A stretch of 64,000 nucleotides of DNA, from assembly GCA_014905635.1 (NCBI GenBank), contig JABVCE010000018.1, positions 248,001-312,000 on the forward strand, in the 5' to 3' direction. The stretch comes from Scenedesmus sp. PABB004 (Eukaryota). The first letter of the stretch is position 1. Every line of letters begins with the position of its first letter. The position numbers were made by a program, and so were the translations under genes. Shown here one piece after another: positions 34,726 to 53,463 of this stretch. Under the pieces are notes generated by a model. It searched no databases. It worked only from the letters and a program-made list of their open reading frames with translations, and was not told the DNA's origin.

Positions 34726-37640
34726 CACTGCACTGAACCCAATCCGCATTGCAGCGTCTTTCATCGCCGGGCGGGCGCGCGCGGGTCCTCCAACTCCATC
34801 CATTTTGCTTGGCGAGCCTCGGCGCGGCGGCGGGGGCGGCAACACGGGCCGGTGCTTGGAAACACTGGGCGGACGCGCGTCGTCACGAGGGCCGGGCGGC
34901 GGCGCACCGGCGGGGCGCAGCGGGCAGCGGCCACCTTGTCCCGCCCCCCGTCCCAAGGCGCCCGACCACACCGCTGCCGCACACGCCCCTGCTCGGACCG
35001 CGCGGAGCGAGCAGTAGCGCGCGCAGCAGCCCGCGCGCCGCCAGCGCCCACGATCTGAGCCGCGGCCGCTCTCCGCGGCCAGGAGCTGACTGAGAGGGCC
35101 TCACACAGGTGCGGGAGCGCGCGCCGCGCCTGCGGGCGGGGCTGGGGCCGCGGCGGGGCCGCGCGAGCAGGCGGCGCCGCTTGCGCTCGCGGCGCGCACA
35201 CGCGCGGCCGCCGGCCAGCGCCGTGGGCTCACGCTGCGCCGCGACGCGCCTCGCAGGCGGTGGCCAGCGAGCGAGGCGCCAAGCGCAGCCGCGGCGGCGG
35301 CGGCGCGGCCGAAGCAGCAGCGGCAGCGCACAGCGGCCCGCGATGGGCGACCTCCGGCAAGGGGGCATGGCGGCGGCAGGGGCCGCGCCGCCAGCCAAGC
35401 AGACGGGCCGCCGTGACGGCCGTGGCGAGGGCGAGGGCGGCGCGGCGCCAGCACAGGCGCCAGCGCCGGAGCTGGAGCAGCCGTGGCCGCTGCTGCTGCA
35501 GCACGCCAGCATCGCCAGCCGGCCGCGGATCGTATGCCGGCTGCTGTGCGGCGGGCGTGGCGCGCCACTGCGCCGGCCGCGTGGCGGTGGACGCCAGCAC
35601 CTGGCGCAAGTGCGACGTCACCGTCGTCGGTGCGTTCTGTGCGTGGCTGGCCAAGCACGGCCGGCTGCTGGCGACCCTGGACGTGCGTGCCCTGCCCACT
35701 GCCGAGATGCTGGATGACGACGAGTATGACGGCAACGACCTGATGGCCTCCAGCCTGATCAGCGCGGCGGAGGCGGCGGCGGCGCCGGCGGACGGCGCGC
35801 CGCCGGGCGTGCTGCTTCTGCGGTCGCCCGCCAGCCGATGGCTGATCAGCCACCCGCGCCAGCCACAGCTGGCGCTGCTGGGCCGGCTGGAGCCCAGCCG
35901 CCTCGCTGAGCTGACCCTGGACCTCTGCGGCACGGACGAAACGGCCCGCCGGCAAAAGGCAATCGCGCGCGCCGCGGCGGCGGCGCTGGCCAAGCTCACG
36001 GCGCTGGCGCGGCTGCAGCTGGTGGTCGGGGGCTGCCCCACGACCCCCGTGTTTGCGGCGCTGGCCGGCCTGACGCGGCTGCGCAGCCTGTTGGCGGTGT
36101 TTGAGCCGGCGGGCCTGCCGGGCCTGGCCAAGCTGCCGGCGCACCTGGAGGAGCTGACGCTGGGCGTGCCGCGGCGCCCCGCGGCATCCAAGCTGCAGCT
36201 GGGCCACCTCACGGCGCTCACGAGGCTCTGCGCGGCGGACGCGGAGACCGTGCGCTGGCTCCGCATCCTGTGCCCTCGTCTCGATGAGAACTGTGCCGAC
36301 GAGTACAGAGTTGCAGAGCTGCCTGAGCTCACCGCGAGCCCGCTGGCGGTCTTCCGCGGCGACGTGCTGCCGCCGCACCTCAAGGAGCTGCAGCTGGAGG
36401 GCTATGGCAGCTGCGTCGCGGTGGAGCCGCTGCTCGCGCTGCGCGGCGAGCTGGCCGCGGTCTCGCTGCGGCTGCTCAGCCCGGCGTCGCAGCAGCTGGC
36501 CGACCTGCGCCGCCTGAGCGAGCTGGCGCCGGCGGTGGTCGACATCGCGCTGGCGTGGGACGGCCGCTGCGATGAGAACGATGATGGCGAGCCGTATGAG
36601 TTTGACCACGTTGAACGCTCGGGCGCGGCGGGCGACTTTGCGCCCGACTGGAGCGCGCTGGCGGGCGTGCGCGAGCTGAGCTTTGTGGGGCAGGACCTCT
36701 TCGGCGAGCGCGGCGAGCACAACCCCCTGGACTTCCTGCCGCGCGTCGCCAGCAGCCTGACGCGCCTGTTCATCGACGACCACCGGGGCATGGAATCGTT
36801 TGCGACGCAGCTCGCCGCGCTCAGCGAGCTGCGGGAGCTTGAGCTCTCTGGCAGCTGGGACTACCTGGAGCTGGAAGGCGCGGCGGTCGTCGCGGCGCTG
36901 CCCCAGCTGCGCAAGCTGGCGGTGCGGTACGCACAGAAGATCCTCGACCACCTGCCGCACGTGGTGCGCGACTTGAGCCGCCTGACCAGCCTTTCCCTCG
37001 ACAGCATTGACGGCATGCGCGACGCCCACGTCGAGCTTCTGGCCGGCGCGCTGCATGGCCTGCGCGAGCTGCGGCTGAACGAGCGCTGGGCCGCCCCCGC
37101 ATCTGTGGACATCACCGACGCGTGCCTGCCGGCCGTCGTGGCGGGCTGCCCGCAGCTCACCAGCCTGGACCTCAGCAGAACCAAGGTCACCGACACGGGC
37201 GTGCGCCAGCTCACGGCGCTGACCGCGCTGCGCGTGCTGGACGTGGCTCACGCGGGCGTGTCGCAGGCCACCGTGCACGAGGTGCTGCAGGCCGCGTGCG
37301 AGTGAGGGAGTGCATGCATGCTGCCATGGGGAGGGGTTTGACGGCGGGCAGGTAGGCGGGCGGGCGGGCGCGCGGTGCTTGCGCCTGGGGCGGGGAGACG
37401 CGCGGCAGCTGAGGCGCGGCCCCGGCCGAGCAGGCGCGCCCGCTGACGCGCGAGCTGCTGCGGGCCCGGCGCAAGTTGACGAGTTGCAATTGCAACCGAG
37501 TTGCCGACGCCGCTGCGACGCGCGCGCCCCCACCTCACGCGCAGCGCTGGTGCGGCGCCCGCCACGGCAGCCCCAGCAGCTGCAGCAGGTCCTGCTCCCG
37601 CTCGATGCGCCGCGCGCTGCCCACACCCAGCCCGGCCGCG
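34726..37640 (+). repeat. Segmental duplication, copy 1 (~2.9 kb)
   Basis: Aligns by eye with 49440-52388 from CACTGAACCCAATC through upstream region, LRR gene, 3' UTR and the 3' end of the Pol X gene. Confidence 0.95.
35367..37305 (+). CDS. Intronless F-box-like/LRR (RNI-like) protein, copy 1; frameshifted by a 17-bp deletion at ~35550 (possible pseudogene)
   Basis: LRR units LAKLTALARLQL, LGHLTALTRL, LSELRELELSG, LSRLTSLSLD, CPQLTSLDLSRTKVTDTGVRQLTALTALRVLDV; lacks GTGAGCCGCGGCCTTGC present in copy 2. Confidence 0.85.
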
Positions 37641-40171
37641 TCGCCGGCCGCGGGCGCCCAGCCGGGCGGCCAGCGCGGCTTGCCGTGCCGGTCGTTCGGC
37701 GGGGCCTCGTCCGGGACCGACAGCACCACGTGGCTCACGCCCGACGCCAGCGCGGCGGCCACGCGGTCGACAGCCTGCGCCTCGCCCGGCGCGGGCGCGG
37801 CTGCACCTGCGGCTGCGCCGCCGCCCGGGCCGGCCGCCGCCGCCACGCTGCGGCTGGCCTGGCCCGCTGCCGCGCGGGCGCCGGCGGCGTCGCGGGGCAG
37901 CTCGACCAGCTTGAGCAGGACGTGGGAGTTCAGGTGCATGTCGCACTGCCGGGCGTGCTCGCGCAGGAACCTGCCGCGCGGGCGGGCAGCGCGTCGGCGC
38001 GTTGCTCGCAAGCAGGCGGCCAGCCCCCGAGCCGGCCCGGCGGGCGCCCGCCCGCCCGCGCCAGCGCTGGCGCGCCGCCGGCGCGCGGGCCGCGCGCGCG
38101 CCGCGCCTGAGCCACTGCGTGGAGCCCGTCCAGCCCACGAGCGCGAGCGTCCAGTCGGCGGGCGGCACAAGCACCAGGTCCACGCGGCGCGCCCGGCCAG
38201 CGGCGGTGATGAAGACGCCCATCACGTGGTCGTACGCGTCCAGCCGGCCCTGCGTTTTCACCCAGCGATTACTGAGCACGTCCTCGCGAACGCGCGCCCG
38301 GTACGCCGGCAGCCCGCCGCTCTGGACCATGGCAAAGCCCTCGCCGCGCCGCACGAGGCGCCCCGCCGCGGCGAGCGCGTCGTACAGCCGCGTCGCGAGC
38401 CCGGGAAGCAGGTCGGGGCGCGAGGGGTGCGTGATCAGCCAGTCGAGGTCGTGCCGCGCGTGCTCGCGGCGCGCGCCCCCGACCGGCTCGATTCGCCAGC
38501 CGTCCGGCTCGCCGCTCACGGCTGCGAGCGCGGACGCGACCACGCCCGCAATCTCGTCCGCCTCGTCGGCGATCGCGCCCGCCGTGAGGTCGGCGGCGTG
38601 GCGCAGGCTGTGCACGATGGCGCGTGGCAGGTTGGCGAGGCGCGGCGGCGCCGGCGACTGCTGCTGCTGCTGACCCGGAGCCTGCTGCCCTGACTGCTCC
38701 TGCTGCTCCTGCTGCTCCTGCTGCTCCTGCTGCAGCGGCGACGCGCCATGCCCCACCGCCGCCGGGCCTCCGCCGCTCCCGCCGCCCGCGCCGCTCTCGC
38801 CGCCCTCGCCGGCGGCCGCGAGCACCTGCTCCACGCTGGCCAGCCCGAGCTGCCACCAGGTCAGCGCGAGCGTCGCGCCCACGCCCGGGAGCTGCTTGAA
38901 CGCCGCGCGCGCGGCGCCGCCCGCGGTCGAGGGGCGCAGGGAGCCCTTGGAGTCGGTGACCGGTCGGTTGGACCGGAACGCGTCGAGCTGAGGGCAGGTG
39001 CCTGCACGGCGCGGCGCGGCGCGACGGCGCGCGTGAGCGGCGCGCCCACGGCGGCGGCGGCAGCGCGGGCCGGCGGTGCTGCGCGCGCGCGCCTGTGCGC
39101 AGCAGCTGGTCGATGATGCGCGCCACGTGCCCGCCGCAGCACGGCAGCAGCGCCTCAATGCGCGCCGGCCCCAGGGTCGCGGCGTCGAGCGCAAACGCGC
39201 ACGCCCGGACCGCGGCCGCGGCGCGGTGGTACGTGAGCGCCTCGTGGCTCAGGAGCGTCGTCGTCGCTGCGGGCGCGGGCGGCGCAGGCGCGGGCGGCGC
39301 AGGCGCGGCTCGGCCGCCCGGCCCGGGGCGCCGGCGGCCTCGGCGCGCCGCGCCGCGCCGCGCGCGCACCGGGCTCGGCCTCGCGGACCGCGACCGCCGC
39401 CTCAAACGCGGCCAGCTCCTTGAGCGCGGCGCGCACCGACTCGTTGGCCCCGCGCGCCGCCGCCCCGGCAGGCTCGTACGACGCCCACAGCATCAGCTCG
39501 ACCTGGCCAGGTTGGTGTGGCAGGGCGGCGCGGGGGTGAGCGAGCTCGGCGCGCGCGCGCTCGGCGCGCGCGCTGCGCCAGCCAGCGCCGCGCCGGCCGC
39601 GCGCCTGGCTGACGACGTCGTCCAGCCCGGCCTCCCAGCCCCCGCGCCACGCGAAAAACTTGCCCATCGGCGCGCCGGGCACGGGGCGCAGGGCCGGCAA
39701 GTCGCGCGGCGCGCCGACCTCGCCGCCGCCGCCGCCACTGGGGCTGGCGCCCTCGCTGGGGCGCGGCAGCAGGTGCGCGAGGCTGTGCTGCCCCGGCGGC
39801 GGCAGCTGCCCGCCAGCGGCCAGCCCCCCGCCCAGCACCGCGTCCAGCCACGAGTCGGCGACGACGGCCGGCGGCGGCCGTGCGGCCGCGGCGAGCTGCA
39901 GCAGCCCGCCCACGCCGGCGGGCACGCCGCGGCCGTCCGCGGGCGCGCGCAGGACGACGTGCGACACGCCCGCCAGGTCGCCGGCGGCCGCACCATGCGC
40001 CACACGCGCGCCCAGCTGCTCCAGGCGCTGACGCACCAGCCCCAGGCGGCGCTGCAGCAGGGGGATGGAGACGTGAAGGAAGACGACCGGGGCGCCGGGT
40101 GCTGCTGCCGCTGCGTGTCGTGCGGGCTCGATCGCTGCGTCAAACCGCTGGCGCTTGGGCGCGCTGTCCAT
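37535..40171 (-). CDS. X-family DNA polymerase with N-terminal BRCT, Pol mu/TdT-like
   Basis: NLS PKRQR; BRCT-like (LGARV...VSHVVL...VVADSWL); 8-kDa domain YHRAAAAVRA; HhH FKQLPGVG; VGGARREHARHDLDWLITHP; RRVDLV; LVGWTGS; EQDLLQLLGLPWRAPHQRCA. Confidence 0.92.
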
Positions 40172-40553
40172 GTTCAGCGCCGTCGGCCCGCAGCGCGCGG
40201 CGCCAGCGGCGGCGCAGCAGCGGCGCGCTGCGCAGCGGCCGCTGCGCGCCAACGCCGGCTTCTTACATGGCGCCCCAACGCCTGCTGGACACGGGCAGCC
40301 AGCCTCACAGCGATTTTGGCCGAAACACGCAGGCCCGTCGCGCGCGCATCACTGAACCCACCGCGCGCATGTGACGACCGACCGCCGCCGCGCGCCATGA
40401 CGATCGCCGGTCGCTGCCCTCACCACCAGAGCGTCAGCATGTCCGCCGCGTCCGCCGCGCCGCTGGCGCCGGCGTCGCCGCTGGCCAGCACGGCGAGGCC
40501 CGTGAGCACCACGCCTGCGCGGCGTGGGCGGCGGCCGGCTCGCTCGCTCGAGC

Positions 40554-41729
40554 TCACGCGGCGACGAGGCCGAGGCCGAGCAGGACCAGACCTGCGTAAA
40601 CGGTGAAAATGACGCCCGCGATCGCCCAGCCCGAGGGCTCGTACGGCTCGTAAGGCACCAGCCCGGCCGCCTCCAGCTCCTCCAGCTCGTCGGCCGCCAT
40701 CAGTGACCGCGCGCCCGGCGCGCCGCGCGCGCCCGCGCCGCGCCGCGCGCCGCGCAGCAGCGACGCGTCGCCGCCGGCGCCGCGGAGCCCGGCCGCCGCG
40801 GCCGCCGCGGCCGCGTCGCCGCCGAGCGCGTCGTCCGCGTAGCGCCAGGGCTTGGCGCGCAGCGCGCGCGCGCTCGCGCGGCGGCCCCACACGCTCGCGG
40901 GCGTGCGCGCGCCCGGCCGCGGCGCCGGCGCGCCGGCCAGCCCGGGCGCGAGCGCCGCGGCGCCTGGCACGGCGCCGCGGCGGACCAGCAGCGCCTGCGC
41001 GATGGCGAGGACCTCCGGGTCGAGCAGCTCGGGGTGGCTGATCAGCCCGCCGCCCCCCGGCGCGGCGTCGAGCGCGTCTGCGGGATCGCCGCTGAGGCGG
41101 TCGTCCCACGCTCCACGACCAGCGGCGGCGGGCCAGGGCGCCTCGGCCGGCTGCGCGAGCGACTGCTTGAGCAGCTCAAGCTCCAGAAAGGACAGCCGCT
41201 CCTCGAGCGCGCCCAGCGCAGCCGCCGCGGGCTCGCCGCCAGCTGCGCCGGGCGGCGCGTCGCCGGGCGGCGGCGGCGCAGCTGCCGGCGCCGGCGCCGC
41301 CGCGCTGCCCGGCGCTTGCAGCTCGGGCGGGCCTGCGGGCGCAGCGTCGCGCGGCGCGGGCGTCGGCGCGCCGCGCGGGCGCGGCCGCATGCACACGCGG
41401 GCGGCGGGCGCGCTGCCAGCCTGGCCGACCGGCGGTCGGCGCGGTCGGCGACCGCGCTCACCGGGGCGCGGAACGCTTGCTCGCGCGCCGACCTCAAGTA
41501 TGAGTGACGCCTGGTGGTGGCTGAAGCCGGACTCCATCAGCACCCTGTGCTGGTGCAGCAAGCGCGCGATCGGCGACGGCGCCGTCGCTTGCGCGGCGCC
41601 ACCGCTGCCGCCGCCGCTGCGCACGCGGGCCGCCGCGCGGGCGCGCCCAGCGTGCAGTCGCGCTGGTGCGACACCGACGGACTGCCGGGTCAGGGCGCGC
41701 GAGCCCTTCAGGGGCCGCACGCAATCCAT
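40554..41729 (-). CDS. Hypothetical protein, transit-peptide-like N-terminus and C-terminal TM helix
   Basis: ATG 41729; exon 1 ends MESGFSHHQASLILE|GT; exon 2 LEERLSFLELELLKQ...WAIAGVIFTVYAGLVLLGLGLV; may extend to a further exon ending at 40420. Confidence 0.6.
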   Translation of the reverse strand: MDCVRPLKGSRALTRQSVGVAPARLHAGRARAAARVRSGGGSGGAAQATAPSPIARLLHQHRVLMESGFSHHQASLILEVGARASVPRPGERGRRPRRPPVGQAGSAPAARVCMRPRPRGAPTPAPRDAAPAGPPELQAPGSAAAPAPAAAPPPPGDAPPGAAGGEPAAAALGALEERLSFLELELLKQSLAQPAEAPWPAAAGRGAWDDRLSGDPADALDAAPGGGGLISHPELLDPEVLAIAQALLVRRGAVPGAAALAPGLAGAPAPRPGARTPASVWGRRASARALRAKPWRYADDALGGDAAAAAAAAGLRGAGGDASLLRGARRGAGARGAPGARSLMAADELEELEAAGLVPYEPYEPSGWAIAGVIFTVYAGLVLLGLGLVAA

Positions 41730-42048
41730 GCGACCGGCGGCGCTCGAGCGTCGCCGGTGCGGGCTTGGTTTCGGCCTGGGCGTGAGCGAGCTCGACGTGC
41801 TGATGCCAGGCGCGCGCGGTGCGAGCTCGGGAGGAAGAAGCGCGCAAAGACCGGCGGCGGCGGTTCCGCGGCTTCTGCGGCGCGAACGGTCTGTCGGCGC
41901 CTGCCTGCCAGGCCCCGCGCCCCACCCAGACCGACGCGCCGCCTCCGAAGACCCCTCAGGAGCTCCCCCGTCGCCCGCTGCCGTGCCGCGTGCCGACAGC
42001 CGCGCTCCGCTGCTGACTGCTGCTCGCGCTGCTCGCGCCGGCCGCGCG

Positions 42049-42987
42049 ATGGACGTCGGGGCCGAGCTGGACGCCCTGGACGCCGGCCTGTCCGCCCTGG
42101 CGGCGGAGGAGGGCATCACGCTGCCAGCGGCGGCGCCCGCGCCGGACCAGCTGGTCGTCCAGCTGCTGGCGCAGCAGTCAAAGCTGCTGGAGCTGGTGGC
42201 GGTCATGGCGCAGACGGCCCAGCGCCACGCCGAGGCGGCGGCGCACACAGCGCCGGCCGCCGCGCCTCCGCCGCACCACGCGGCGCCGCCGGACGACGCG
42301 GCGTTGCTGAAGCGCCGGTGGTGCAAGGTGCAGCGCGCGCTGCTTTCGCACCTCGCGGACGCGCGGGCGCAGCTGGCGGCCGCGGACTCGGCGCGCGAGG
42401 CGGCGTGCCGGCGCGAGGCGCGCGCGCTGTCTGCCGCGGCGGCGCTGCGCGCCCGGCTGCTGGAGCAGGAGCAGGAGCTCGTCGCGGTGCGGGAGCAGCT
42501 GCAGGAGGTTGCGCAGCTGCACTCGAGCAAGCTGGCGCGCGCGAAGCAGCGGCTGCAGCAGCGCTACGAGGCGCAGCTGGCGGCGACCACGGCGGCGTAC
42601 GCCGAGGAGCTGGCGGCGATCCAGCCGCGCACGCGCGCCTGCGGGCGCGGCGGCGGCGGGGCCGAGGCGCCGCGAGTGCCGCAGCAGCCCGGCGCGCCCG
42701 CGGCTGGGGCGCGGCAGGCCGGCGCCGGCGCGCAGGAGCACTGCGACGAGGCGCCGTGGCAGCGCCCGCGGGGTCGCCACCAGTGCGGTGCGCTGGGCTG
42801 CTGCGCCCCGGGCGGCAGCCAGCCGGGGGGCCGTCCGGGCGCCGCTGAACGCCGCCGCCGGCTGCCCGCGCAGGCGAGGGCGGCGGCGAGGGCACGACGC
42901 GGCCGCTCACGGCGCCCTCGTCGGACCGCCGCGCCGGCGCCAGCCCGCCGCGCAGCGCGCGCGTGTCTGCCGCCGGCGGCGCGCTGA
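42049..42987 (+). CDS. Hypothetical coiled-coil protein
   Basis: GCGATG 42049; heptad-rich RARLLEQEQELVAVREQLQEVAQLHSSKLARAKQRLQQRYEAQL; 3' end uncertain. Confidence 0.6.
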   Translation: MDVGAELDALDAGLSALAAEEGITLPAAAPAPDQLVVQLLAQQSKLLELVAVMAQTAQRHAEAAAHTAPAAAPPPHHAAPPDDAALLKRRWCKVQRALLSHLADARAQLAAADSAREAACRREARALSAAAALRARLLEQEQELVAVREQLQEVAQLHSSKLARAKQRLQQRYEAQLAATTAAYAEELAAIQPRTRACGRGGGGAEAPRVPQQPGAPAAGARQAGAGAQEHCDEAPWQRPRGRHQCGALGCCAPGGSQPGGRPGAAERRRRLPAQARAAARARRGRSRRPRRTAAPAPARRAARACLPPAAR

Positions 42988-43226
42988 GCGCGGCAGGCGG
43001 CCTCGGCGGGCTGCGGGCGAGCTGACCGACGGCGCGGCCGCGGCCGTCCTCGGGGGCAACGCGGTTGCCCGCTCGCGCACACCCGCGTGGCGCCAATCCT
43101 GCGCCGCCAGCCCTCGTCACTCGCTCTCCACGTGCACGTTTTCAGTGCGACCCGCCGCCGCCCCGCCCCGGCGCTCCGCCCCGCACGGCCGCGCCCGGGG
43201 CTGCTGCGCCGCTGCCGCCGGCAGCC

Positions 43227-44057
43227 TCACGCCCGCTGGTAGTCAGGGAAGCATTGCTGCGCGCGCGCGGCGGGAGGGCGGGCGGCGGGGCAGGCCGGTG
43301 AGCGCGCCCGGGCGGCGGGGCAGGCCAGTGAGCGCGCCCGTCCCGTGGCCGCGGGGCAGCCGCGCGAGCGAGAGCGCGCCGCCGCCGCCGCCGCCGCCGC
43401 ACCTCGAACGTGCTCTTGGGGTGCTTGTTCTCCTGGTGGTCCTTCAGCTGCTGCTCTTTGCTCTGCGCAGCGGCGGCGGCGGGCGTGTGGACGGGCGCTC
43501 GGGCCCCAGCGCCCTTGCGCGCCGCGCGCGCCCTTGCGCCGCGCCGCGTGCGCCGCGCACCGTGCAGATGAACGTCGTCAGGCACACGCTGCACTTCATC
43601 GTCAGCGCGGCCGCGTTGGCCTTGAGCTGGCTGCCTGCGCGCGGCGCGCCGCGGCGAGCGGCGCGGGCGTGGGCTTCGCGCGGTCCGCGGCCGCCGCGGC
43701 CGCCGCGGCGCGCGCGCCGCCCACCCTTGGGCTCCTTGAGCTTCTCCGCGTTGCGGGCGCGCTTGGTCGCCGACTTCTGGCCGTTGCCGCCACCCTGCGG
43801 GGGCGCGGCAGGGCGTCGGCAGCCGCGCGGCGCTGCTCCGGCGCGCCGCCGCGCGCAGCCGCCGCCTGCCCGCCGGGCTTTGGCAGCACGCGCGCCCCCG
43901 CCGCTGCTCGGGAGCGGCGTCCGCCGGCCCGGGCGCGGCCGCCCCGCGGCGGCGCGGGCAGCGCCGGGCGCGCGATGCAGGCGCGCGCCGCGGCGCGCTG
44001 CCCAGGGCCGCCGCCGCGCGCCCAGGTGCCGCGTCTCGCGGCGAGGGCGCTCACCAT
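43227..44057 (-). CDS. Small SERF/ZNF706-like C2H2 protein (At2g23090-like)
   Basis: M|GGGNGQKSATKRARNAEK...GSQLKANAAALTMKCSVCLTTFICT|SKEQQLKDHQENKHPKSTFE|QCFP; first coding exon is only ATG (ATG|GTGAGC at 44057-44055). Confidence 0.9.
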
Positions 44058-44371
44058 GGTGCCGCGCCGCTCCTCTGCGGCCGCGGGCTGCGCGCAGCGA
44101 GGTGCGCGTGGCGGGCTCGTGCGGGGCTGGCGGTGTGCAGCTGTCGAAGCCGGCGAGGGCGAGAGTGGCGCGGCGGTCGCGCGGCGTCGCAGCGTGTGCT
44201 GCCGCTCAGGTTCACTTATGCGCGGCCGCTCTCGAAAGCGAAAAAGGCCCGCCGTCCACGCACAAGCCCGCTCCACAGCCTCCGCACGCACGCACACCGC
44301 CTCCGCCGCACCCGCGCCGGGCACCCACACACCGCGCCGCGCGCGCCGCCACCGCTGCTGCGTGCTCGCGC

Positions 44372-44721
44372 ATGTCCCAGCAGCAGCAGCAGACGCCGCC
44401 GCCGGCCCTGCCCGGCCACCTGGCCTTCACCCCGGGCAGCGCCATCAGCACCGGCGGCGCCGCGCCGCCCCCGCACCGCCAGCAGCAGCAGCACGCGCCG
44501 GCGCCAGCGCCCGAGCAGCACCGCGGTGCGCCGGCCGTCGCTGCAAGCGTCTCCCCCGCCCGGCGCGCGCGGCGCGACGCGACGCGCCGCCCGCCCGCCG
44601 CACCGCGCCGCGCCGGGGCGCAGAGCTGCTGGCAGAGGCGCTGGCCGCGCTGCGAGGCGAGGTGGACGCGCTCGCGGAGGACGGCTGGATGTTTGAGGCG
44701 CCCCGCCACTCGCTCCGCTGA
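44372..44721 (+). CDS. SAMBA: SAMBA-like small APC/C regulator
   Basis: 2 exons; C-terminus ELLAEALAALRGEVDALAEDGWMFEAPR resembles plant SAMBA (LDEDNWMFEGPR). Confidence 0.6.
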
Positions 44722-44780
44722 CGCCCGCCGCGCGGTCGCCGCCGCCGCCGCCGCCGCGGCCGGCTCGCGGCGCGCCCGCC

Positions 44781-46468
44781 ATGGAGCCGGACGACGCCGC
44801 GCCGGGGGGCCGCACGCCGCTCGCGCAGCGCGCCGAGTGGGCGGACGTCACGCCGTGCCCCGTGCCGGCGAGCGAGGCCGACGGCGCCGTCGTGGCGGTC
44901 CAGTACAGCGCGGCGCACCGCGAGGCCTTGGGCTACCTGCTCGCCTGCATCGCCACGGCACGCGCCGCCGCCGCCGCGGGACGCCGCGGCACGCCGCGGG
45001 CAGCCGCGCGCCCGCGCTCGCCGCTCGCCGCCGCGGCGGCGCCCGCGCCCGCGCCCGCCGCGGGCGGCGCCCCGCCGAGGCCGCGCCGCCGCGCTGCCGC
45101 GGCGCCGCGCAGGGCGAGCGCAGCGCGCGCGTGCTGGCGCTGACGGCCGACGTGATCGCCGCCAACTCGGCGCACTACACCGCGTGGGAGGTGCGCTGGG
45201 AGTGCCTGCTCGCGCTCGGCGCCGACCTGCGGCGGGAGTATGAGTTCACAGAGTGAGAGGCCCGCTGCGGCCGCCGCTGCCCGCTGCCCGCTGCCCGCTG
45301 CGGCGGCCGATGCCCGCTGCCGCTGCGGCGGCCGCGGCGGCTGCGGCGGCCGCGGGGCTGCGCCTAGGACGCGCTCCGAGCGGCCCCGAGCGCGCGCGCC
45401 TGCGCGCCCGCGCCTGCGCTCACCCGTGCGCCCGCGCAGGCGCGTGGCCGAGGAGAACGCCAAGAACTACCAGCTCTGGAATCACCGCCTCAAGCTCGCC
45501 AAGGCGCTCGGCCCCGACGCCACGCAGGCGGAGCTCGAGTTCTGCAAACGTGCGCGCGCCCGCGTCCGCGTCCGCCGCCGCCGCCGCCAGACGCGTGCTG
45601 CCAGGCGCGCGCGCCGCCGCCAGGCACCCGCCCACGCCCGCCCGCCCGCGCGGCAACTCTCGCGCGCAGGCGCGCTGGACGGTGACGCCAAGAACTACCA
45701 CGCGTGGGCGCACCGCCAGGTCGTGGTCGCCGCGGGCGGCGCGTGGGCGGCGGAGCTGGGCTACGTGGAGGAGCTGCTCGCCGCCGACGTGCGCAACAAC
45801 TCGGCCTGGAACCAGCGCATGTTTGTGCTGCAGGTGCGGCGCGGCGCGCGGGCGCGCGGCGGCGGCGTGCGGCTGCAGCGCGCGGCGCCGCGGTCGCCGA
45901 GCGGGCCGTGCCCGTGCTGCGCGCGCGCGCGCGCGCGCAGCACACGCTGGGCGAGCACGCCAGCCTCGAGGCGCTGCTGCAGCGCGAGCTGTCGTACGTC
46001 GCCGCCGCGGTGGCGCGCGCGCCGGACAACGAGAGCGCGTGGAACTACCTGTGGGGCCTCTTCTCGCTGCCGGGCTGCGCCGACGACGCGATGGGCCTGC
46101 AGGACGAGGCGCGCACGCGCCGCGTGCGGTTGGCGGGCCGGCCGGCACGGCACCGCATGGGGTGGCGCGCGCGGCCGGCGGCCCACGCGCGGCGCACGCG
46201 CGCCCCGCACGCGGTGTCGCCGCAGGTCTTTGCCGTCTGCCGCGACGCGCTGGCGCGCAGCGCGTCGTGCAAGCCCGCGCTGGACACGCTCGCGCAGGCG
46301 TACGCCTGCCTCGCGCGCGCGGCGGCGGCCGCCGGCGACGCCGGCGCGTCGGCCGCCGCCGCGCGCGCGGGGCTGCGCGCGCTGGACGCGGCCGCGGTGG
46401 CCGACCCGATGCGTGCCAACTACTGGCACCACCGCCGCGCCGAGCTGGAGCCGCTGGCGGGCCGCTGA
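44781..46468 (+). CDS. FNTA: Protein farnesyltransferase/GGTase-I alpha subunit
   Basis: EWADVTP, NSAHYTAWEVR, NAKNYQLWNHR, DAKNYHAWAHRQ, DVRNNSAWNQR, PDNESAWNYL, DPMRANYW (PPTA repeats). Confidence 0.95.
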
Positions 46469-46628
46469 GCGGCGGGGCGGGGGCGTGCAACGACGCAGCG
46501 ACCGGCCGCGGATGCGTCACCGACGTCGCGTCAGAGCCAGATGCAGAAGCGCCGCAAGCGCCGCCGGTGCCGCCGCCGCGCTTTCCTCCTCGGCGTCACC
46601 CGGGCGGGCCAGAGCCCCGGCTGATGTG

Positions 46629-49360
46629 ATGTTGAGGATGCACGGGGGCTGGGTACCGCTCCTCGCCGCCGCGCTGCTGCTCGCCAGCGCCCGGCTCAGC
46701 AACGAGCGCGACTTGTTCAGCGGCGCCAGCAGCAACCCTAAGCTCGCTGCGTCGAACCGCAGCGTCACGGAAGATGGCGGAGCAGAGGCCGCCAGGGCGG
46801 CGGCGATGGAGGCGCTGTTCGCGTCCATACGCCGCGACGGTGCCGCGCTGACGGCCTTCTTCACGGCGTGAGCCTAGCGCTGGTGCAGCGCCTGCGACTC
46901 GCCGGAGCAGCTCCCGCTTCCGCCGCGCCGGGGCGCCGCGGCTGGCCGCACACCCGGCCGCCGCTGCCCTCGTCCGCCCGCAGGATGCCGGGCAAGAGCG
47001 AGCTCCACTACCACTACGAGTGAGCGCCGGGCTGGGCTGGGCAGTGGAGCTGGGGCGCGCGCGCTCCCCGGCGGCAGTCAAGCTCAGCGTGGCGGGCGCG
47101 TGGTCCGGCGGACCGCGCGCCCAGGCGCCTCCAACCCGCGCCGCGCCGCGCCGCCGCGCCTCGCCCCCCCCCCTCCCCGCAGCGGCGGCGTGCCGACCGA
47201 GGACCTCATCGACGCCGCGGTGCGCGCCGACCTCGCGCTCTGCCCGGCCACCGCGACGGTCGCGGCGCGCGCCAACGCCGACCCCGCGGCCTGCGCGGGC
47301 GGCGGCTGGACGCCGATCGGCCGCTTCGCCTCCGAGCACGGCGGCGCCGCGCTGAGCTCGCTGCTGCTCGAGGGGTGGAGCACCTACAACTACGAGGGTG
47401 GAGCTCGAGGGTGGAGCAACTACAACTACGTCCAGACGCCGCGCGAGGCGCCCGCCGCGCACTTCTTCAGCGCCTTTGCCCGCTTCGCCGCCGCCAAGGC
47501 GCGCCGCCCGCGCGCCGCCCCTCGCCCGCGCCCGCAACGCCGCACGCGCGACGCCGCACGCGCCGCCGCCGCACGCGCCGCCGCCGCCGCGCGCCCGCGG
47601 CGCGCGCAGGACGTGGACCCGCGCGCGATGCTGCGTGCGACCAGGGCGCGCGCCGTGGATGAGGGCACTGTCTATATGGAGGTCATACTGCTTATGCTCA
47701 GGTGAGCGAGGCAATACGAGTGAGGCCAGACGAGTAGATCCTCACCTGAGGCGGGCCGCCCGCGCCCGCCGCGCCCGCCGCGCCCGCCGCGCCCGCCGCG
47801 AGGCCACAGCACTGCGCGCGCGCGCGGCCAGCCCCTGCGCCTGGCGGCCGCGCGGCCACAGCAGAGCGAGCGCGCACCGCCGCCGCCGCCGCCGCCGCCG
47901 CCGGCGACGCCGCGCGCGCAGGGGCCCGGCGCTGAGCGCCGCGTTCGAGGCGCGCCTGCGCGGCGCCGCGCGCGCGCGCGACGCGGCCGCCGCGCTCGCG
48001 GCGCTCGACGAGGCCTTTGCCAGCGTGCCGCGCGCGGCCTGGGACGGCGCGGCCACGGCGTACGCTCGGTCGGTGGAGGCGCTGGGCGCCGGCCTGGACG
48101 GCCCCAACTTTGCGATGCGCTTCGTGGGCTGGGCGCTGCGGCTGCTGCCGCCGCTCGACGTGTTCTCGGCCGCCGCGGTCGGCTTCCTCGCTGCGGGCCG
48201 CAGCCCGCTGCTCGTCGGGGTCAACCTCGTCGGCCCCGAGGCCGACCCCGTCGCGCTGCGGGACTACTGGCTGCACATGGTCATGGTGCGCCGCCCGGCG
48301 AGCGGCCTGCGGATCGGGCCTGGCGTCGGCCCTCCGCCGCCGCGCGGGCGCGCGAGCCCTGCGCAGCGCCCTGCTGGCGCGCGCGCGCGGCCAGGCGCCT
48401 GAGCGTCGCGCCGCCGCCCCGTGTCGCTGCGCTGCGTGCCAACACAACAGTTCAAGTACCTGCGGTCCAAGTTCCCGGCCGTGCGCGTCGCGCTGCACGC
48501 GGGCGAGCTCGAGCTCGACCTCGTTGCGCTGCAGCACCTCACGTGCGCGCCGCGCTCGCGCCGCGCCGCGCCACGCCCGAGCCGCGCCCGCGCGCCGCGC
48601 TCAAGCGCGAGCCTGAGCCGCGCCCGCGCCCGCGCGCCGCGCGCAGCTCGCACGTGGCCGACGCGGTGCGCATCGGCGGCGCGCACCGCGTGGGGCACGG
48701 CGTGGCGCTGCCGTACGAGCCCGACCAGGCGGCCACACTGGAGTACATGCGGGACAATGGCATTGCGCTGGAGGTGCTGCTCACCTCGAACGAATTCGTC
48801 CTCCCCCAGACCGCCGGCAGGCACCCGTTTGTGTCCTACCTGCGCGCCGGCGTGCCGGTGCGCTGGCGCGGCGCGCGGCGCCCCTGCGCCGCGCGGCCCC
48901 GGGCGACTGGCAGGGCCCGCGCCCGCGCCCGCGGCGCAGCCGAGGGAGCCCGCGCGCCGCGCCCGCGCGCCGCGCCGCCGCAGCTGGTGATCTCCAGCGA
49001 CGACCCGGGCATCCTGCGCACCAGCCTGACCGAGCAGTACGTGACCATGGCCCTCCACTACCCTGCCGTCACGTGAGTGGCTGGCCATGGCCGACGCAGC
49101 CGGCGGCCGCCTGGCCCGCGGCACGCGCGGGGTCACCGGCCCCGCCCGCCGGCGCCCGTCCCTCCCAGCCTGACGCGCCGCCGCGTGCGTGCACACACGT
49201 GCGCAGGTACGCCGACCTTCGGCGCATGACGCTCAATGGGCTGCGCTTCTCTTTCCTGCGGGAGCCGCAGCTCAAGCGGCGCCTGCTGGGCCGCGCGGAG
49301 GCCGACCTCGCGCGCTTTGAGGCCGACGCACTCGCCGGCAAGGTGGTGGTGGGGGCCTGA
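46629..49360 (+). CDS. Secreted adenosine deaminase-family protein, bacterial-like
   Basis: Signal peptide; MPGKSELHYHY (HxH metal site); VGVNLVGPE...ALRDYWLHM; VALHAGEL; RVGHGV; EVLLTSN; HPF; VISSDDPGILRTSLTEQY; about 8 introns. Confidence 0.88.
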
Positions 49361-50094
49361 GCGGGGGAGCGAGCTGGGGGGCTGGCGAGAGGCGAGCTGC
49401 AGCCCTCTGAGCACTGAACCCGGCGCCTGAGGAGCGCGAGCACTGAACCCAATCGCCTTTCATCGCTGTTTCATTGCCGAGCGGCGCGCGCGGCGGGACT
49501 CAATCCATCCATCTAGCTTGACGAGCCTGGGCGACGGGGCGGTGCGGTGCTTGGAACACTGGGCGGACGCGCGTCGTCACGAGGGCCGGGCGGGCGGCGG
49601 TGCAGTGGCGGGGCGCAGCCAGCGGCGCGGCGGCCAGCTTCCATCCCTCCCCGCCCCTCAAGGCGGCCGATCACACCGCTTCCGCACGCGCCCCCGCTCG
49701 GACCGCGCGGAGCGAGCAGCAGCGCGAGCAGCAGCCCGCGCGCCGCCAGCGTGCACGATCTGCGCCGCGGCCGCTCTCCGCGGCCAGGCGCTGACTGAGA
49801 GGGCCTTACACAGGTGCGGGAACGCGCGCCGCGCGCCTGCGGGCGGTGCCGGGGTCGCGGCGGGGTCGCGCGAGCAGGCGGCGCCGCGAGCGCTCGCGGC
49901 GCGCACACGCGCGGCCGCCGGCCAGCGCCGTGGGCTCACGCTGCGCCGCGACGCGCCTCGCAGGCGGTGGCCAGCGAGCGAGGCGCCAAGCGCAGCCGCG
50001 GCGGCGGCGGCGCGGCCGAAGCAGCAGCGGCAGCCGCGGCTGCAGCAGCGGCAGCGAGCGCACAGCCCGCGAAAGGCGACCTCCGGCAGGGGGC

Positions 50095-52058
50095 ATGGCG
50101 GCGGCAGGGGCCGCACCGCCGGCCATGCAGGCGGGCCGCCGTGACGGTCGTGGCGAGGGCGAGGGCGGCGCGGCGCCAGCACAGGCGCCAGCGCCGGAGC
50201 TGGAGCAGCCGTGGCCGCTGTGCTGCAGCACGCCAGCATCGCCAGCCGGCCGCGGCTCGTGTGCCGCCTGCTGTGCGTGAGCCGCGGCCTTGCGGCGGGC
50301 GTGGCGCGCCACTGCGCCGGCCGCGTGCCGCTGGACGCCAGCACCTGGCGCAAGCGCTACGACGTCGACGGGCTCGACGTCAGCGCGTGGCTGGCCGAGC
50401 ACGGCCGGCTGCTGGAGACCCTGGACGTGCGTGCCCTGCCCACTGCCGAGATGCTGGACGAGTACGACGACGACGACGACCTGATGGCCTCCAGCCTGAT
50501 CAGCGCGGCGGAGGCGGCGCCGGCGCCGGCGGACGGCGCGCCGCCGGGCGTGCTGCTGCTGCGGTCGCTCGCCAGCCGATGGCTGATCAGCCACCCGCGC
50601 CAGTCACAGCTGGCGCTGCTGGGCCGGCTGGAGCCCAGCCGCCTCGCTGAGCTGACCCTGGACCTCTGCGGCACGGACGAAACGGCCCGCCGGCAAAAGG
50701 CAATCGCGCGCGCCGCGGCGGCGGCGCTGGCCAAGCTCACGGCGCTGGCGCGGCTGCAGCTGTTGGTTGGGGGCTGCCCCACGACCCCCGTGTTTGCGGC
50801 GCTGGCCGGCCTGACGCGGCTGCGCAGCCTGTTGGCGGTGTTTGAGCCGGCGGGCCTGCCGGGCCTGGCCAAGCTGCCGGCGCACCTGGAGGAGCTGACG
50901 CTGGGCGTGCCGCGGCGCGACGCGGTGCCCAAGCTGCAGCTGGGCCACCTCACGGCGCTCACGCGGTTGTGCGCGGCGGACGCGGACGCCGTGCGCTGGC
51001 TCCGCGACCTGTGCCCTGGTCTTGATGCGATGTTTCAGATGCCGCTTGAGAGCTTCATGATAAGTGAAGACCTGCCCGACCTCACCGCCGGCTCGCTGGA
51101 GGTCTTCCGCGGCGATGTGCTGCCGCCGCACCTCAAGGAGCTGCAGCTGGAGGGCTATGGCAGCTGCGTCGCGGTGGAGCCGCTGCTCGCGCTGCGCGGC
51201 GAGCTGGCCGCGGTCTCGCTGCGGCTGCTCAGCCCGGCGTCGCAGCAGCTGGCCGACCTGCGCCGCCTGAGCGAGCTGGCGCCGGCGGTGGTCGACATCG
51301 CGCTGGCGTGGGACGGTCGCTGCGATGAGAACGAGGATGGTGTGCCATACGAACGTGAATGCTATGACCGCTCTGGCGCGGCGGGCGACTTTGCGCCCAA
51401 GTGGAGCGCGCTGGCGGGCGTGCGCGAGCTGAGCTTTGTGGGGCAGGACCTCTTCGGCGAGCGCGGCGAGCACAACCCCCTGGACTTCCTGCCGCGCGTC
51501 GCCAGCAGCCTGACGCGCCTGTGCATCGACGACCAACGGGGCATGGAATTGTTTGCGACGGAGCTCGCCGCGCTCAGCGAGCTGCGGGAGCTTGAGCTCT
51601 CTGGCTGCTGGGACTACCTGGAGCTGGAAGGCGCGGCGGTCGTCGCGGCGCTGCCCCAGCTGCGCAAGCTGGCGGTGCGGTACGCACAGAAGATCCTTGA
51701 CCACCTGCCGCACGTGGTGCGCGACTTGAGCCGCCTGACCAGCCTTTCCCTCGACAGCATTGACGGCATGCACGACGCCCACGTCGAGCTGCTGGCCGGC
51801 GCGCTGCATGGCCTGCGCGAGCTGCGGCTGAGCGCGCGCTTTGGCGCCCGCGCGTCTGTGGACATCACCGACGCGTGCCTGCCGGCCGTCGTGGCGGGCT
51901 GCCCGCAGCTCACCAGCCTGGACCTCAGCAGAACCAAGGTCACCGACACGGGCGTGCGCCAGCTCACGGCGCTGACCGCGCTGCGCGTGCTGGACGTGGC
52001 TCACGCGGGCGTGTCGCAGGCCACCGTGCACGAGGTGCTGCAGGTCGCGTGCGAGTGA
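50095..52058 (+). CDS. Intronless F-box-like/LRR protein, copy 2; 1-nt frameshift at ~50220
   Basis: Same LRR units as copy 1; CCGCTG-TGCTGCAG versus CCGCTGCTGCTGCAG in copy 1. Confidence 0.85.
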
Positions 52059-52281
52059 GGGAGTGCATGCATGCTGCCATGGGGAGGGGTTTGACGGCGG
52101 GCAGGTAGGCGGGCGGGCGGGCGCGCGGTGCTTGCGCCTGGGGCGGGGAGACGCGCGGCAGCTGAGGCGCGGCCCGGGCCGAGCAGGAGCGCCCGCTGAC
52201 GCGCGAGCTGCTGCGGGCCCGGCGCCAGTTGACGAGTTGCATTGCAACCGAGTTGCCGACGCTGCTGCGACGCGCGCCTCC

Positions 52282-52388
52282 TCACGCGCAGCGCTGGTGC
52301 GGCGCCCGCCACGGCAGCCTCAGACGCTGCAGCAGGTCCTGCTGGTGCTCGACGCGCCGCGCGCTGCCCACGCCCTGCCCGGCCGCGC
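52282..52388 (-). pseudogene. Duplicated 3' remnant (~35 codons) of the Pol X gene
   Basis: GVGSARRVEHQQDLLQRLRLPWRAPHQRCA* versus GVGSARRIEREQDLLQLLGLPWRAPHQRCA* at 37535-37640. Confidence 0.85.
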
Positions 52389-52519
52389 CACGACCCCGTG
52401 CGCCGCCAGGGGCGGCGGTGCAGCGCGGCGGTGCAGCGGCGTGACGCACGCTCAGCCAACGTCTCCCACGGCCGCACTCACGCGACAGCTCCGCCCCTGG
52501 AGGCAGATCGCCCTGCAGG

Positions 52520-53463
52520 ATGGACGAGCCGACGGCAGCAGCAGCGGTGCGCGACAGCGGCGCCAGCGCGGCGCCGGCGGACGACGAGCCGATGCAAACG
52601 GACGACGTCGTGCCCACGGATGGTGTCGAGCGCAAGCAGGTGCGCGCCCCTGCCGGCGCTCGACCGACAGCAGCGGCACGCGCGCTGCGAGCGGGCTGGC
52701 AGCGGCGGCCTGCGGCTCCCGGGCCCGTGGCGCCGGGCGCGGTGCCTGGGCCGCTGGCGCGAGCGGCTGGCGCCGGGCGCGTCGGGCGCGCCGCCGGCTG
52801 CGCGCCGACCACGGCGCCGCGCAGGCGGGCGAGCAAGGCGAGGACGACGAAGAGGACGACGACGAAGACCTCTGCGCCGTGGGCGGCGACCCCCTGGGCG
52901 TGGGGCCGACCTGGGGCCTCGCCGACGACCCGACGTCGGGCCTCGGCGGCCTCGGCCGCGCGCTCGCCGCGCCGCTGGCGGGCGCGGGCGGCGGAGGGCC
53001 GGCGCTGGGCGGCGGGCAGGCGCCGGGCGGCGCCGGCGCGGCGGGCGGGGCGGGCGAGGCAGACGAGGAGGAGTACCCCGACGGTGACGTGCTGGACGCC
53101 GGCGCGATCGGGGAGGGCGAGTTTGTGGCGCAGCCGTTCACGCGCTCGTCGCGGCGAAGCGGCGCGGTCGGGCCCGCCGGCCCCGACCCGCGCGCGCGGC
53201 CCGACCCCGACCCCGGCGGCGCGCACGGCGGGAGCCGGCACGGCGTCGGCGCGGGCGACCTGGCGATGGGTGGAGTCGCCGTGCAGGACGCGGTCGCGCT
53301 GGTGGGCGCGGGCGCCCACGGCGGCGGCGCGCGGCCCGAGCTGCAGCCGCTCGGCGTCGGCGGCCTGCGGCCGTCGCGGGAGGTCGCCGCGGGCAGCGCG
53401 GCGCAGCCGGGCTCGGCCGCTGACGCGGCGCACCTCGCGGCGATGGGTTTTGGCGGGCGGTGA
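52520..53463 (+). CDS. Hypothetical acidic/Gly-rich protein
   Basis: MDEPTAA...GVERKQ|GT intron ~52640-52824 |AGEQGEDDEEDDDEDL...GFGGR*; strong GC3 codon usage; could be the 3' part of a gene cut by the duplication. Confidence 0.55.

Follow-up and report, generated by a model that had tools for sequence, protein, structure and literature searches.

Duplicated genes in which gene conversion is combined with local selection carry a published signature, low divergence broken by narrow peaks. In its available text, a review of the subject (PMC3924837) connects such peak-of-divergence duplicates with Innan 2003 and Teshima and Innan 2008 and counts the human red/green opsins among them. LRR genes provide a second point of reference: plant NLR families are described, in the available text of PMC6771003, as multi-member, with many donors and with variability located in solvent-exposed beta-strand residues. 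The locus described here lies in a 64,000-nucleotide stretch of the genome of Scenedesmus sp. PABB004 (the window) and is a small, clean case of mosaic divergence between duplicates in a very GC-rich (~79%), repeat-poor green alga, repeats being reported at 1.31% of the genome in the accessible part of PMC12571836.

The duplicated unit is ~3 kb long. Copy A, the parental locus, occupies 34730..37679 on the forward strand and adjoins an intact family X DNA polymerase gene (Pol X); the derived copy B, at 49440..52429 on the same strand, holds a relic of the 3' end of that gene. The two copies are spaced 14.7 kb apart and are 91.1% identical across 3026 columns (blastn). The borders of the unit are real, as the flanks beyond them are unrelated: four comparisons between the flanks of A and B returned 0 tblastx matches. 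Upstream of copy B lies an adenosine deaminase gene (47181..49360, forward strand; PF00962). The NCBI model KAF8060027.1 joins this gene and the LRR gene of copy B into one, despite the deaminase having its own stop codon at 49358-49360.

Identity falls towards the ends of the unit. The 5' edge shows 59, 71 and 77 identities per 100-column row and the final 200 nt at the 3' edge are 91% identical, whereas long stretches of the interior reach 98-100% and the non-coding 3' sequence is ~98% identical. Outside the coding patches described below, the differences are over-dispersed, with a variance/mean of 2.86 that was reached in 0/5000 shuffles: the first 200 columns hold 17 of them and the final 200 nine, and five bins of 100 columns are free of any. 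Indels of 22, 17 and 1 nt, absent from the first-pass annotation of this DNA, separate the copies in non-coding or 5' sequence. Because the edges are so much more diverged than the interior, the duplication appears to be an older one that was later homogenised.

Differences were counted over a core alignment of 2700 columns (A 34990-37636), 214 of which differ. As many as 154 sit within 316 patch columns, where identity drops to 51%, and the remaining 60 are spread over 2384 non-patch columns (97.5% identity). If each gap run is counted once, the core holds 160 difference events. Clustering in 30-column bins gives a variance/mean of 4.79; shuffles average 0.95, and none of 5000 attains the observed value. 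The first-pass annotation had reported four short divergent blocks in two LRR genes that were otherwise near-identical, synonymous sites and 3' UTR included. Translations and nucleotide alignment locate all four pairs where it had placed them, and the near-identity is borne out by a non-patch dS of 0.019 and by ~2 differences within 37306-37436 of the 3' UTR. Two further coding patches, p2 and p3, bring the total to six. Patch p1 (A 35611..35640, B 50355-50384; all patches are on the forward strand) lies in the N-terminal region and differs at 16 of its 30 columns, which at the codon level are better read as two offsetting 3-nt indels. Patch p2 (A 35715..35734, B 50459-50475) is an acidic loop rich in GAC/GAT/GAG with a 3-nt indel, p3 (A 36178..36187, B 50919-50928) emerges from the nucleotide alignment, and p4 (A 36277..36347, B 51018-51100) carries a net 12 nt more in B. 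In p5 (A 36582..36621, B 51335-51374), which is of equal length in the two copies, 15 of 40 columns differ and many of these differences are silent; p6 occupies A 37079..37101 and B 51832-51854. The nucleotide alignment gives four of the six patches the same length in A and B (30/30, 10/10, 40/40 and 23/23 nt), and a codon-by-codon likeness is still visible within them.

The contrast extends to silent sites. The six patches (72 codons) have a dS of 0.65, a dN of 0.53 and a ratio of 0.82, values near saturation, and the ORF outside them (517 codons) has a dS of 0.019 and a dN of 0.020. Selection on the protein alone cannot produce such a difference at silent sites next to non-coding 3' sequence that is itself ~98% identical. 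An excess of replacement change, which marks a peak in the sense of Teshima and Innan, was not found over the 72 patch codons. Outside the patches, 22 replacement and 8 silent differences amount to exactly the neutral ratio; a dN/dS of ~1 could mean that the genes are decaying. The AT-richness remarked upon in the first-pass annotation holds: GC3 is 0.72 in the patches of A (68 codons) and 0.76 in those of B (71 codons) compared with 0.94 in the 517 non-patch codons, and no 40-mer in the window is poorer in GC than one in p4 of B (0.42; the 64 kb average 0.79). Amino-acid-specific codon usage would lead to a GC3 of 0.93-0.94, 0/20000 simulations were as low as the patches, and local GC content at the first and second codon positions fails to account for the deficit. 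Most of the A/T-ending patch codons differ between A and B. The low GC3 points to locally faster, mutation-driven turnover or to young sequence, and the silent-site AT excess is beyond standard conversion-plus-selection models. The patch spectrum, 42 transitions and 53 transversions, shows no difference from that outside (26 and 29). All substitution classes are represented in the patches (W/S 56, S/S 12, W/W 6), and neither an adenine-specific nor a C-to-T-dominated, deaminase-like spectrum was found there.

LRR gene A extends over 35367..37305, from an ATG at 35367 to a stop at 37303-37305, with the LRR frame open from 35548; LRR gene B extends over 50095..52058, from an ATG at 50095 to a stop at 52056-52058, and both are on the forward strand. 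A 17-nt deletion at ~35546 in A and a 1-nt deletion at ~50220 in B, the latter in a (CTG)3 run, shift the ATG frame off the LRR frame unless an intron removes them. A hypothetical GT-AG intron (A 35483..35597, 115 nt; B 50211-50341, 131 nt; forward strand) spans both frame-breaking indels and might restore the frame in the two copies; with 13 other introns in A and with 20 in B the frame would stay open as well. The translations match the LRR profiles PF24758 (32.7/31.4 bits, cutoff 27) and PF25013 (27.2/30.0 bits, cutoff 27), and PF23598 scores slightly below its cutoff of 40 (39.9/39.5 bits). Neither translated copy shows an F-box family at E<=0.1, the N-terminal frame being uncertain, and FBXL-like Atlas matches rest on the LRR portion. 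An AlphaFold model built on a 68-row alignment (pLDDT 70.1, pTM 0.64) shows regular E/H repeats at residues 110-240 and 400-600 that form a curved solenoid. Foldseek retrieves 457 PDB matches at E<=0.001; those listed are LRR proteins and include TIR1, COI1, TLR7 and TLR9 (E 1e-9 to 1e-7), at TM-scores of just 0.3-0.46. When the patches are mapped on this predicted structure, a step that the first-pass annotation had proposed, they fall in solenoid loops: coil accounts for 57 of the 71 patch residues and for 236 of the 542 others (Fisher 4e-9). Patches p1, p4 and p5 are predicted loops with a block-mean pLDDT of ~55 or lower (~42-51 in p1, 34-43 in p4 and 44-53 in the predicted coil of p5), and p6 is a loop right after a beta-strand in a confident part of the model. 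Despite the change in sequence, the loops retain their acidic/aromatic make-up across A and B.

Convergent with gene A and 230 nt downstream of it is the 3' part of the Pol X gene (37535..39250, reverse strand; stop 37535-37537, thumb end 37538-37612, palm ~38085-38609), and the first-pass annotation had correctly recognised this neighbour as a family X polymerase. The thumb, PF14791, is the sole Pol X domain above its curated cutoff (29.4 bits, cutoff 25); the fingers, PF10391 (E 0.08), and HHH_8 (E 0.007) are under theirs. The Atlas score is 0.94, with 199 shared features and clusters that carry palm, thumb and fingers. The best PDB match of the palm is human Pol mu (phmmer, E 1.8e-8), Pol lambda (2e-3) and TdT chimeras (5.5e-3) being weaker. 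The motifs HDLDW and RVDLV line up with HDVDF and RVDLV of human Pol mu, and the aligned Asp residues are presumably the three catalytic aspartates of the palm. The same alignment places a His before the first of them, which we take to be a Pol mu-type feature and which, judged from sequence, would have the corresponding role. No BRCT was found at E<=0.01 in the frames upstream of this 3' part, where the gene model is incomplete at its 5' exons. Copy B retains only the last ~35 codons of the polymerase gene (52282..52387, reverse strand), with no Pol X upstream of the relic; compared with the live gene, 5 of 30 residues and ~9% of bases are changed. As the relic is far more diverged than the LRR interior, the interior appears to have been homogenised after the duplication. 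The adjacency of LRR gene and polymerase follows from where the duplication ended, the relic having fallen inside the unit, and Pol X is a bystander, its 3' end having been swept up with the copied DNA. The linkage does not recur between the two copies, and the functional tie between polymerase and LRR gene on which the first-pass annotation had speculated finds no support.

The reading that these observations make on balance probable is an older duplication whose interior was later evened out by interlocus gene conversion, leaving loop islands in which divergence was retained or accelerated. One LRR gene, its promoter region, its 3' UTR and the last ~35 Pol X codons would have been copied 14.7 kb away, earlier than the 2% interior divergence implies. 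Interlocus (ectopic) conversion would then have overwritten the interior repeatedly, coding and non-coding sequence alike, and the unit edges and six short coding segments would have escaped. These segments, which encode irregular loops of the predicted LRR solenoid, would have gone on accumulating silent and replacement differences alike. Their escape may be due to selection for differing loops in the two paralogues, or to dense mismatches and indels that block or restore heteroduplex. As in concerted evolution, the interior is closer between the copies than the edges are, silent and non-coding sites included, and the differences are clustered; from two sequences, conversion suggests itself as the homogenising process, and selection or mismatch barriers as what spared the patches. 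Some considerations count against conversion: unconverted old relics should show the codon equilibrium of the genome, which a patch GC3 of 0.72-0.76 does not, and a tract that runs across a patch should wipe it out, save where selection or mismatch rejection steps in. The first-pass annotation had offered three explanations for the patches: the gene-conversion mosaic agrees with the present evidence, selection on the loops is compatible with it, though the patch dN/dS of 0.82 does not exceed 1, and untemplated synthesis is unsupported.

Patch GC3 far under equilibrium in both copies, with A/T-ending codons mostly unshared, would also fit a fairly recent duplication in which loop segments and non-coding edges evolve far faster locally. 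Clustered multi-nucleotide mutations, slippage and small indels would accumulate in loosely constrained or positively selected loops, and AT-ending silent changes would hitchhike by linkage. The indels in p1, p2 and p4, the GAC-type codon repeat of p2, the position of the patches in loops modelled as disordered and the persistence of acidic/aromatic make-up as the sequence shifts all favour this explanation; however, it requires a ~30-fold silent rate limited to segments of 10-80 nt, it needs a separate account of why the non-coding edges and the Pol X relic have diverged, and the patch spectrum does not depart from that outside. It is rather unlikely, if with an appreciable chance of being right. 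Young duplicates could instead have received their patches by short-tract conversion from distant family members, as in plant resistance-gene clusters, and the sharp borders, the lengths within a few codons of each other and the mixture of silent and replacement differences fit tracts from diverged donors. Donors are what the searches failed to provide: the best patch matches within the 64 kb window are 12-14-mers with E 0.06 or more, only the window's own protein falls below 1e-30 among 1.84 billion representatives, neither a third family member nor any other close relative occurs among annotated public proteins of 350-3185 aa, and two metagenome scans were empty. With a genome reported as repeat-poor and the diverged edges left without account, patch import is improbable.

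The Pol mu-type palm encoded so close to copy A, together with a patch composition out of equilibrium, could speak for programmed or somatic diversification, in which targeted breaks in the loops undergo error-prone or untemplated repair by the neighbouring polymerase. Yet the patches of copy B are equally divergent next to a dead relic of 35 codons, four of the six patches keep their length together with residual codon-by-codon likeness, and neither a shared border motif, donor cassettes in the window nor an A-specific or C-to-T-dominated spectrum is found; no k-mer is shared at the 12 patch flanks beyond controls. TdT additions are G/C-rich, unlike these AT-rich patches, and in eukaryotes the family X polymerases belong to the ordinary repair machinery. 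The chances of such a system are exceedingly remote. Barely less so are those of a broader version in which an active, local mutational process acts on the patches of both copies, for example recurrent breaks and error-prone synthesis, conceivably with the Pol mu-like enzyme acting in trans, that would have left the AT-shifted silent sites as its footprint; if true, a green alga would possess a mechanism for diversifying a receptor. It is likewise very improbable, by a slightly lesser degree, that moderately diverged paralogues were homogenised by polishing with cross-mapped reads, segments that were too different being left alone. The ~79% GC of the genome and the 14.7 kb spacing of the copies would lend themselves to such an artefact, and the 1-nt frame-breaking indel of B in its (CTG)3 run could be a consensus error, but the smooth edge gradient and the scattered single differences (60 in 2384 columns) are unlike wholesale cross-polishing, and the assembly is reported at 77 contigs with an N50 of 1.3 Mb (PMC12571836, in its available text).

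Homogenised tracts, six narrow LRR-loop peaks and a datable edge relic all lie within 18 kb, which makes the locus convenient for measuring ectopic conversion, GC bias and barriers to conversion in a chlorophyte. Of its features, only the AT-shifted silent sites of the peaks fall outside the predictions of standard conversion-plus-selection models; should the shift stem from local interference of adaptive substitutions or from a special mutation spectrum, its interest would extend beyond this LRR gene.

Among known systems, TdT/Pol mu N-addition, lamprey VLR and diversity-generating retroelements share with this locus a receptor-like repeat protein, localised variability and, here, a Pol mu-like enzyme nearby. 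The locus differs from V(D)J, VLR and DGR in having no signal motifs, no cassettes in the window and no adenine-specific pattern, most of its changes leave the length intact, the polymerase is missing at copy B, and no reverse transcriptase was seen near either copy. In TIR1/COI1 and TLR7-9, ligand-contacting specificity resides in long intra-repeat loops. The present proteins resemble the F-box LRRs TIR1/COI1 and TLR7-9 in their LRR solenoid (Foldseek) and in patches that form irregular insertions between repeats, and differ in that no F-box was detected and TM-scores are low. Like plant NLR and other resistance-gene LRR families such as RPP8 (PMC6771003, as far as its available text goes), the copies are LRR paralogue mosaics of exchanged and divergent segments that vary chiefly in the LRR part; unlike them, they have no NB-ARC attached, they number just two as far as is known, and they vary in loop insertions, not on the beta-strand face. 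Compared with the peak-of-divergence duplicates, as these appear in the available text of PMC3924837, the locus has six peaks, some with indels, in the loops of an LRR protein, a peak dN/dS of 0.82 and an AT shift at silent sites for which that model makes no provision. It agrees with those duplicates in consisting of linked paralogues tens of kb apart, near-identical even at silent and non-coding sites, and interrupted by narrow, sharply bounded coding regions of high divergence.

The duplicated unit consists of copy A (34730-37679, plus strand) and copy B (49440-52429, plus strand), which lie 14.7 kb apart in direct orientation and are 91.1% identical over 3026 columns by blastn. Beyond its borders nothing is shared even at the protein level, with 0 tblastx matches in four comparisons of the flanks. 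Two occurrences of the 11-mer GCACTGAACCC, 29 nt apart, lie at the 5′ border of copy B (49411-49455) and one more at that of copy A; they may be a microhomology that the duplication left at its junction. Global alignment of the two copies reveals runs of 100-200 identical bases interrupted by short, near-random blocks. Within a core of 2700 alignment columns, 214 differ: 154 of these fall in 316 patch columns (51% identity), and 60 are scattered over the other 2384 (97.5% identity). Counting each run of gaps once leaves 160 events, whose clustering was reached by none of 5000 shuffles. The first-pass annotation had proposed that these leucine-rich repeat (LRR) paralogues differ in sharply bounded patches; that observation is confirmed and statistically strong, and all four peptide pairs quoted in its support are present in the translations of A and B. 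The coding patches number six: p1 (A 35611-35640, B 50355-50384), p2 (A 35715-35734, B 50459-50475), p3 (A 36178-36187, B 50919-50928), p4 (A 36277-36347, B 51018-51100), p5 (A 36582-36621, B 51335-51374) and p6 (A 37079-37101, B 51832-51854). Patches p2 and p3 are additions to the earlier description, as are a 22-nt indel upstream of the ATG and indels of 17 nt and 1 nt downstream of it.

Synonymous positions share in the divergence. The 72 patch codons show a dS of 0.65 and a dN of 0.53, against 0.019 and 0.020 for the 517 other codons, where 8 silent and 22 replacement changes correspond to a neutral ratio. This 30-fold contrast at silent sites means that selection on the protein cannot be the only cause. 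Inside the patches the ratio of 0.82 offers no hint of positive selection, although divergence there is close to saturation. The substitution spectrum is unremarkable, with transitions and transversions at 42:53 inside patches and 26:29 outside; by class, the patch changes comprise 56 W/S, 12 S/S and 6 W/W. A RIP-like or deaminase-like spectrum was rejected because transitions are not dominant, and a DGR-like adenine bias because the patch spectrum is not adenine-specific. In the nucleotide alignment four of the six coding patches are of equal length in both copies; p1, followed codon by codon, looks like two offsetting 3-nt indels, and in p5 the codon frame is still recognizable (D-G-x-P-Y-E...R-S). 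No motif is shared among the 12 patch borders.

GC content is approximately 79-80% across the whole window. The genome of Scenedesmus sp. PABB004, listed as GCA_014905635.1, is tabulated in PMC12571836 at 39.8 Mb, 77 contigs, 7,092 genes, 78.5% GC and 1.31% repeats, figures that agree with the composition of the window; a literature search for the strain's genome paper returned only works that use or tabulate the genome. In both copies patch codons end in A or T much more often than any other codons compared: their GC3 is 0.72 and 0.76 versus 0.94 expected from amino-acid-specific usage, and 0 of 20000 simulations gave values as low. Local context was rejected as the cause, since 2174 codons of other genes have a GC3 of 0.88-0.95 in every local-GC12 bin. 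The AT-richness previously noted by eye in the two middle blocks holds, p4 of copy B containing the 40-mer with the lowest GC in the window (0.42). In a test of an AT-rich origin relaxing to GC, W/S changes accounted for 56 of 74 patch substitutions, only slightly more than bases of that composition would yield if paired at random. Compositional equilibrium would be expected of simple relics, which the AT-ending patch codons do not fit; the excess possibly reflects interference from recurrent adaptive change in loops, a local mutation spectrum that differs from the rest or a relatively young insert.

Both LRR ORFs match LRR models, and no F-box was detected in either. AlphaFold, supplied with a 68-row alignment of distant LRR proteins, predicts a repeat solenoid (pLDDT 70.1, pTM 0.64); with a 2-row alignment only, the model was unusable (pLDDT 31.9). 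Its Foldseek neighbours are LRR proteins, namely NLRP LRRs, Roco, internalin, TIR1/COI1, ribonuclease inhibitor and TLR7/9. Coil is assigned in the model to 57 of 71 patch residues versus 236 of 542 elsewhere (Fisher 4e-9): p1, p4 and p5 are modelled as loops with a block-mean pLDDT of ∼55 or less, and p2, p3 and p6 as loops immediately following beta-strands.

The 5′ ends of the genes are less straightforward. Copy A is missing 17 nt at ∼35546, with TGCG microhomology at the bounds, and copy B is missing 1 nt at ∼50220 within a (CTG)3 run; because of these independent losses neither copy reads from the ATG into the LRR frame. A homologous GT-AG intron candidate (A 35483-35597, B 50211-50341) would excise both indels and restore both frames. 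Candidate introns that restore the frame number 13 in A and 20 in B, so that in such GC-rich DNA the shared intron is only a possibility. Either an unannotated intron spans both indels or the original N-terminus is gone in both copies. An exhaustive HMMER search of 1.84 billion representatives identified one protein 100% identical to copy B across 610 residues, NCBI KAF8060027.1, labelled 'add [Scenedesmus sp. PABB004]'. This model (47181-53460, plus strand) gets round the broken frame in copy B: it splices exons of the upstream adenosine deaminase gene over an 880-nt 'intron' into the LRR ORF and continues beyond its stop through another intron into two more low-complexity exons. The fusion is probably a chimera produced by gene prediction, as the adenosine deaminase frame already terminates at 49358, 10 nt past the supposed donor. 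Copy A was not found among annotated proteins of 350-3185 aa.

Eukaryotic genes in the window encode an APAF1_C helical domain with WD40 repeats, a prenyltransferase alpha subunit, methyltransferases and a family X polymerase. The APAF-1/STAND-like gene (17903-22000, plus strand), in which many WD40 repeats come after an APAF-1 helical domain (PF17908, E 3.7e-5), sits ∼13 kb upstream of copy A, and the neighbourhood may therefore hold several surveillance-type genes. An ORF at 25872-27761 (plus strand) contains a right-handed beta-helix region (PF13229, E 4.9e-8). Low-complexity GC-rich stretches at 34000-34250, 47770-48015 and 53780-53917 match one another in both orientations at 73-87% and probably represent simple-sequence repeats of coding or spacer DNA, with no relation to the duplication.

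The polymerase gene (Pol X, 3′ part at 37535-39250, minus strand) is convergent with the LRR gene of copy A. The C-terminus of its thumb matches PF14791 at 29.4 bits (cutoff 25) on the minus strand downstream of the copy, with the stop at 37535-37537. Among solved structures the palm (38085-38609, minus strand) is closest to human Pol mu (E 1.8e-8), with Pol lambda (2e-3) and TdT chimeras (5.5e-3) behind it, and HDLDW and RVDLV in the palm correspond to HDVDF and RVDLV in Pol mu. Atlas neighbours (score 0.94) have thumb and fingers domains as well as a palm; the palm used as a search query gave no match. In the palm, RHDLDW aligns to GHDVDF of Pol mu, placing a His directly ahead of the first catalytic Asp, which we take to be a feature of the Pol mu/TdT type and not of the Pol beta/lambda type. 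The enzyme can fairly be described as a family X polymerase with a Pol mu-like palm, and such an enzyme in a chlorophyte may deserve separate study. The duplicated unit extends about 100-140 nt into Pol X, so that copy B holds the last ∼35 codons of the gene (52282-52387, minus strand). Five of 30 residues are changed in this relic and none of the gene lies beyond it, which shows that copy B derived from the A locus.

The identity profile bears on the age of the duplication. Counted per 100 columns, identity climbs from 59 through 71 to 77 at the 5′ end and lies at 93-100 in the interior, and the final 200 nt drop back to 91. The 60 non-patch differences are over-dispersed (variance/mean 2.86, 0 of 5000 shuffles): 17 lie in the first 200 columns, nine in the last 200 and eight beside p4, and five 100-column bins are empty. 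A recent duplication would predict a uniform ∼98% identity up to the breakpoints, unlike this profile. After an older duplication, ectopic conversion would repeatedly overwrite the interior and give exactly the profile observed. Patch distance, at about 0.5-0.65, is comparable in magnitude to that of the 5′ edge.

The rival explanations carry different weight. Faster local turnover of the patches is ranked second and is rather unlikely, but it draws support from the AT-ending codons at odds with simple relics and is kept alive by the several possible causes of that excess. Import of patches from unseen paralogues, ranked third, is improbable: no patch has a donor within the window, where only chance-level 12-14-mers were found. 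Searches further afield gave 9 matches among 8000 scored near-length proteins (best 35% identity over 23% of the query) and 15 among longer ones, covering proteins of at least 350 aa, with the window's own protein the only close one. Two metagenome scans produced 88 and 596 pattern matches, 0 confirmed by tblastn; the freshwater metagenome runs X1 and X2 contained just 0.11 and 0.05 of the words sampled, and no RNA run was listed as containing them. An assembly artefact, fourth in rank, is very unlikely, and a diversifying system driven by the polymerase comes last, being scarcely credible. The first-pass annotation had raised the latter link as speculation, with recurrent linkage as a check; the polymerase accompanies one of the two copies only, copy B having the 35-codon relic in its place, and the adjacency is therefore an accident of the duplication endpoint.

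The most likely mechanism, with odds a little better than even, is interlocus gene conversion that keeps a two-copy LRR family evolving in concert while loop-coding islands escape it. Literature on GC-biased conversion in green algae yielded nothing usable. Duplicates under conversion that retain narrow peaks of divergence are a published picture, as described in PMC3924837, and the A/B unit resembles those duplicates in having such peaks within otherwise similar copies. The locus adds a case to a known kind of evolutionary pattern; it does not constitute a new system.
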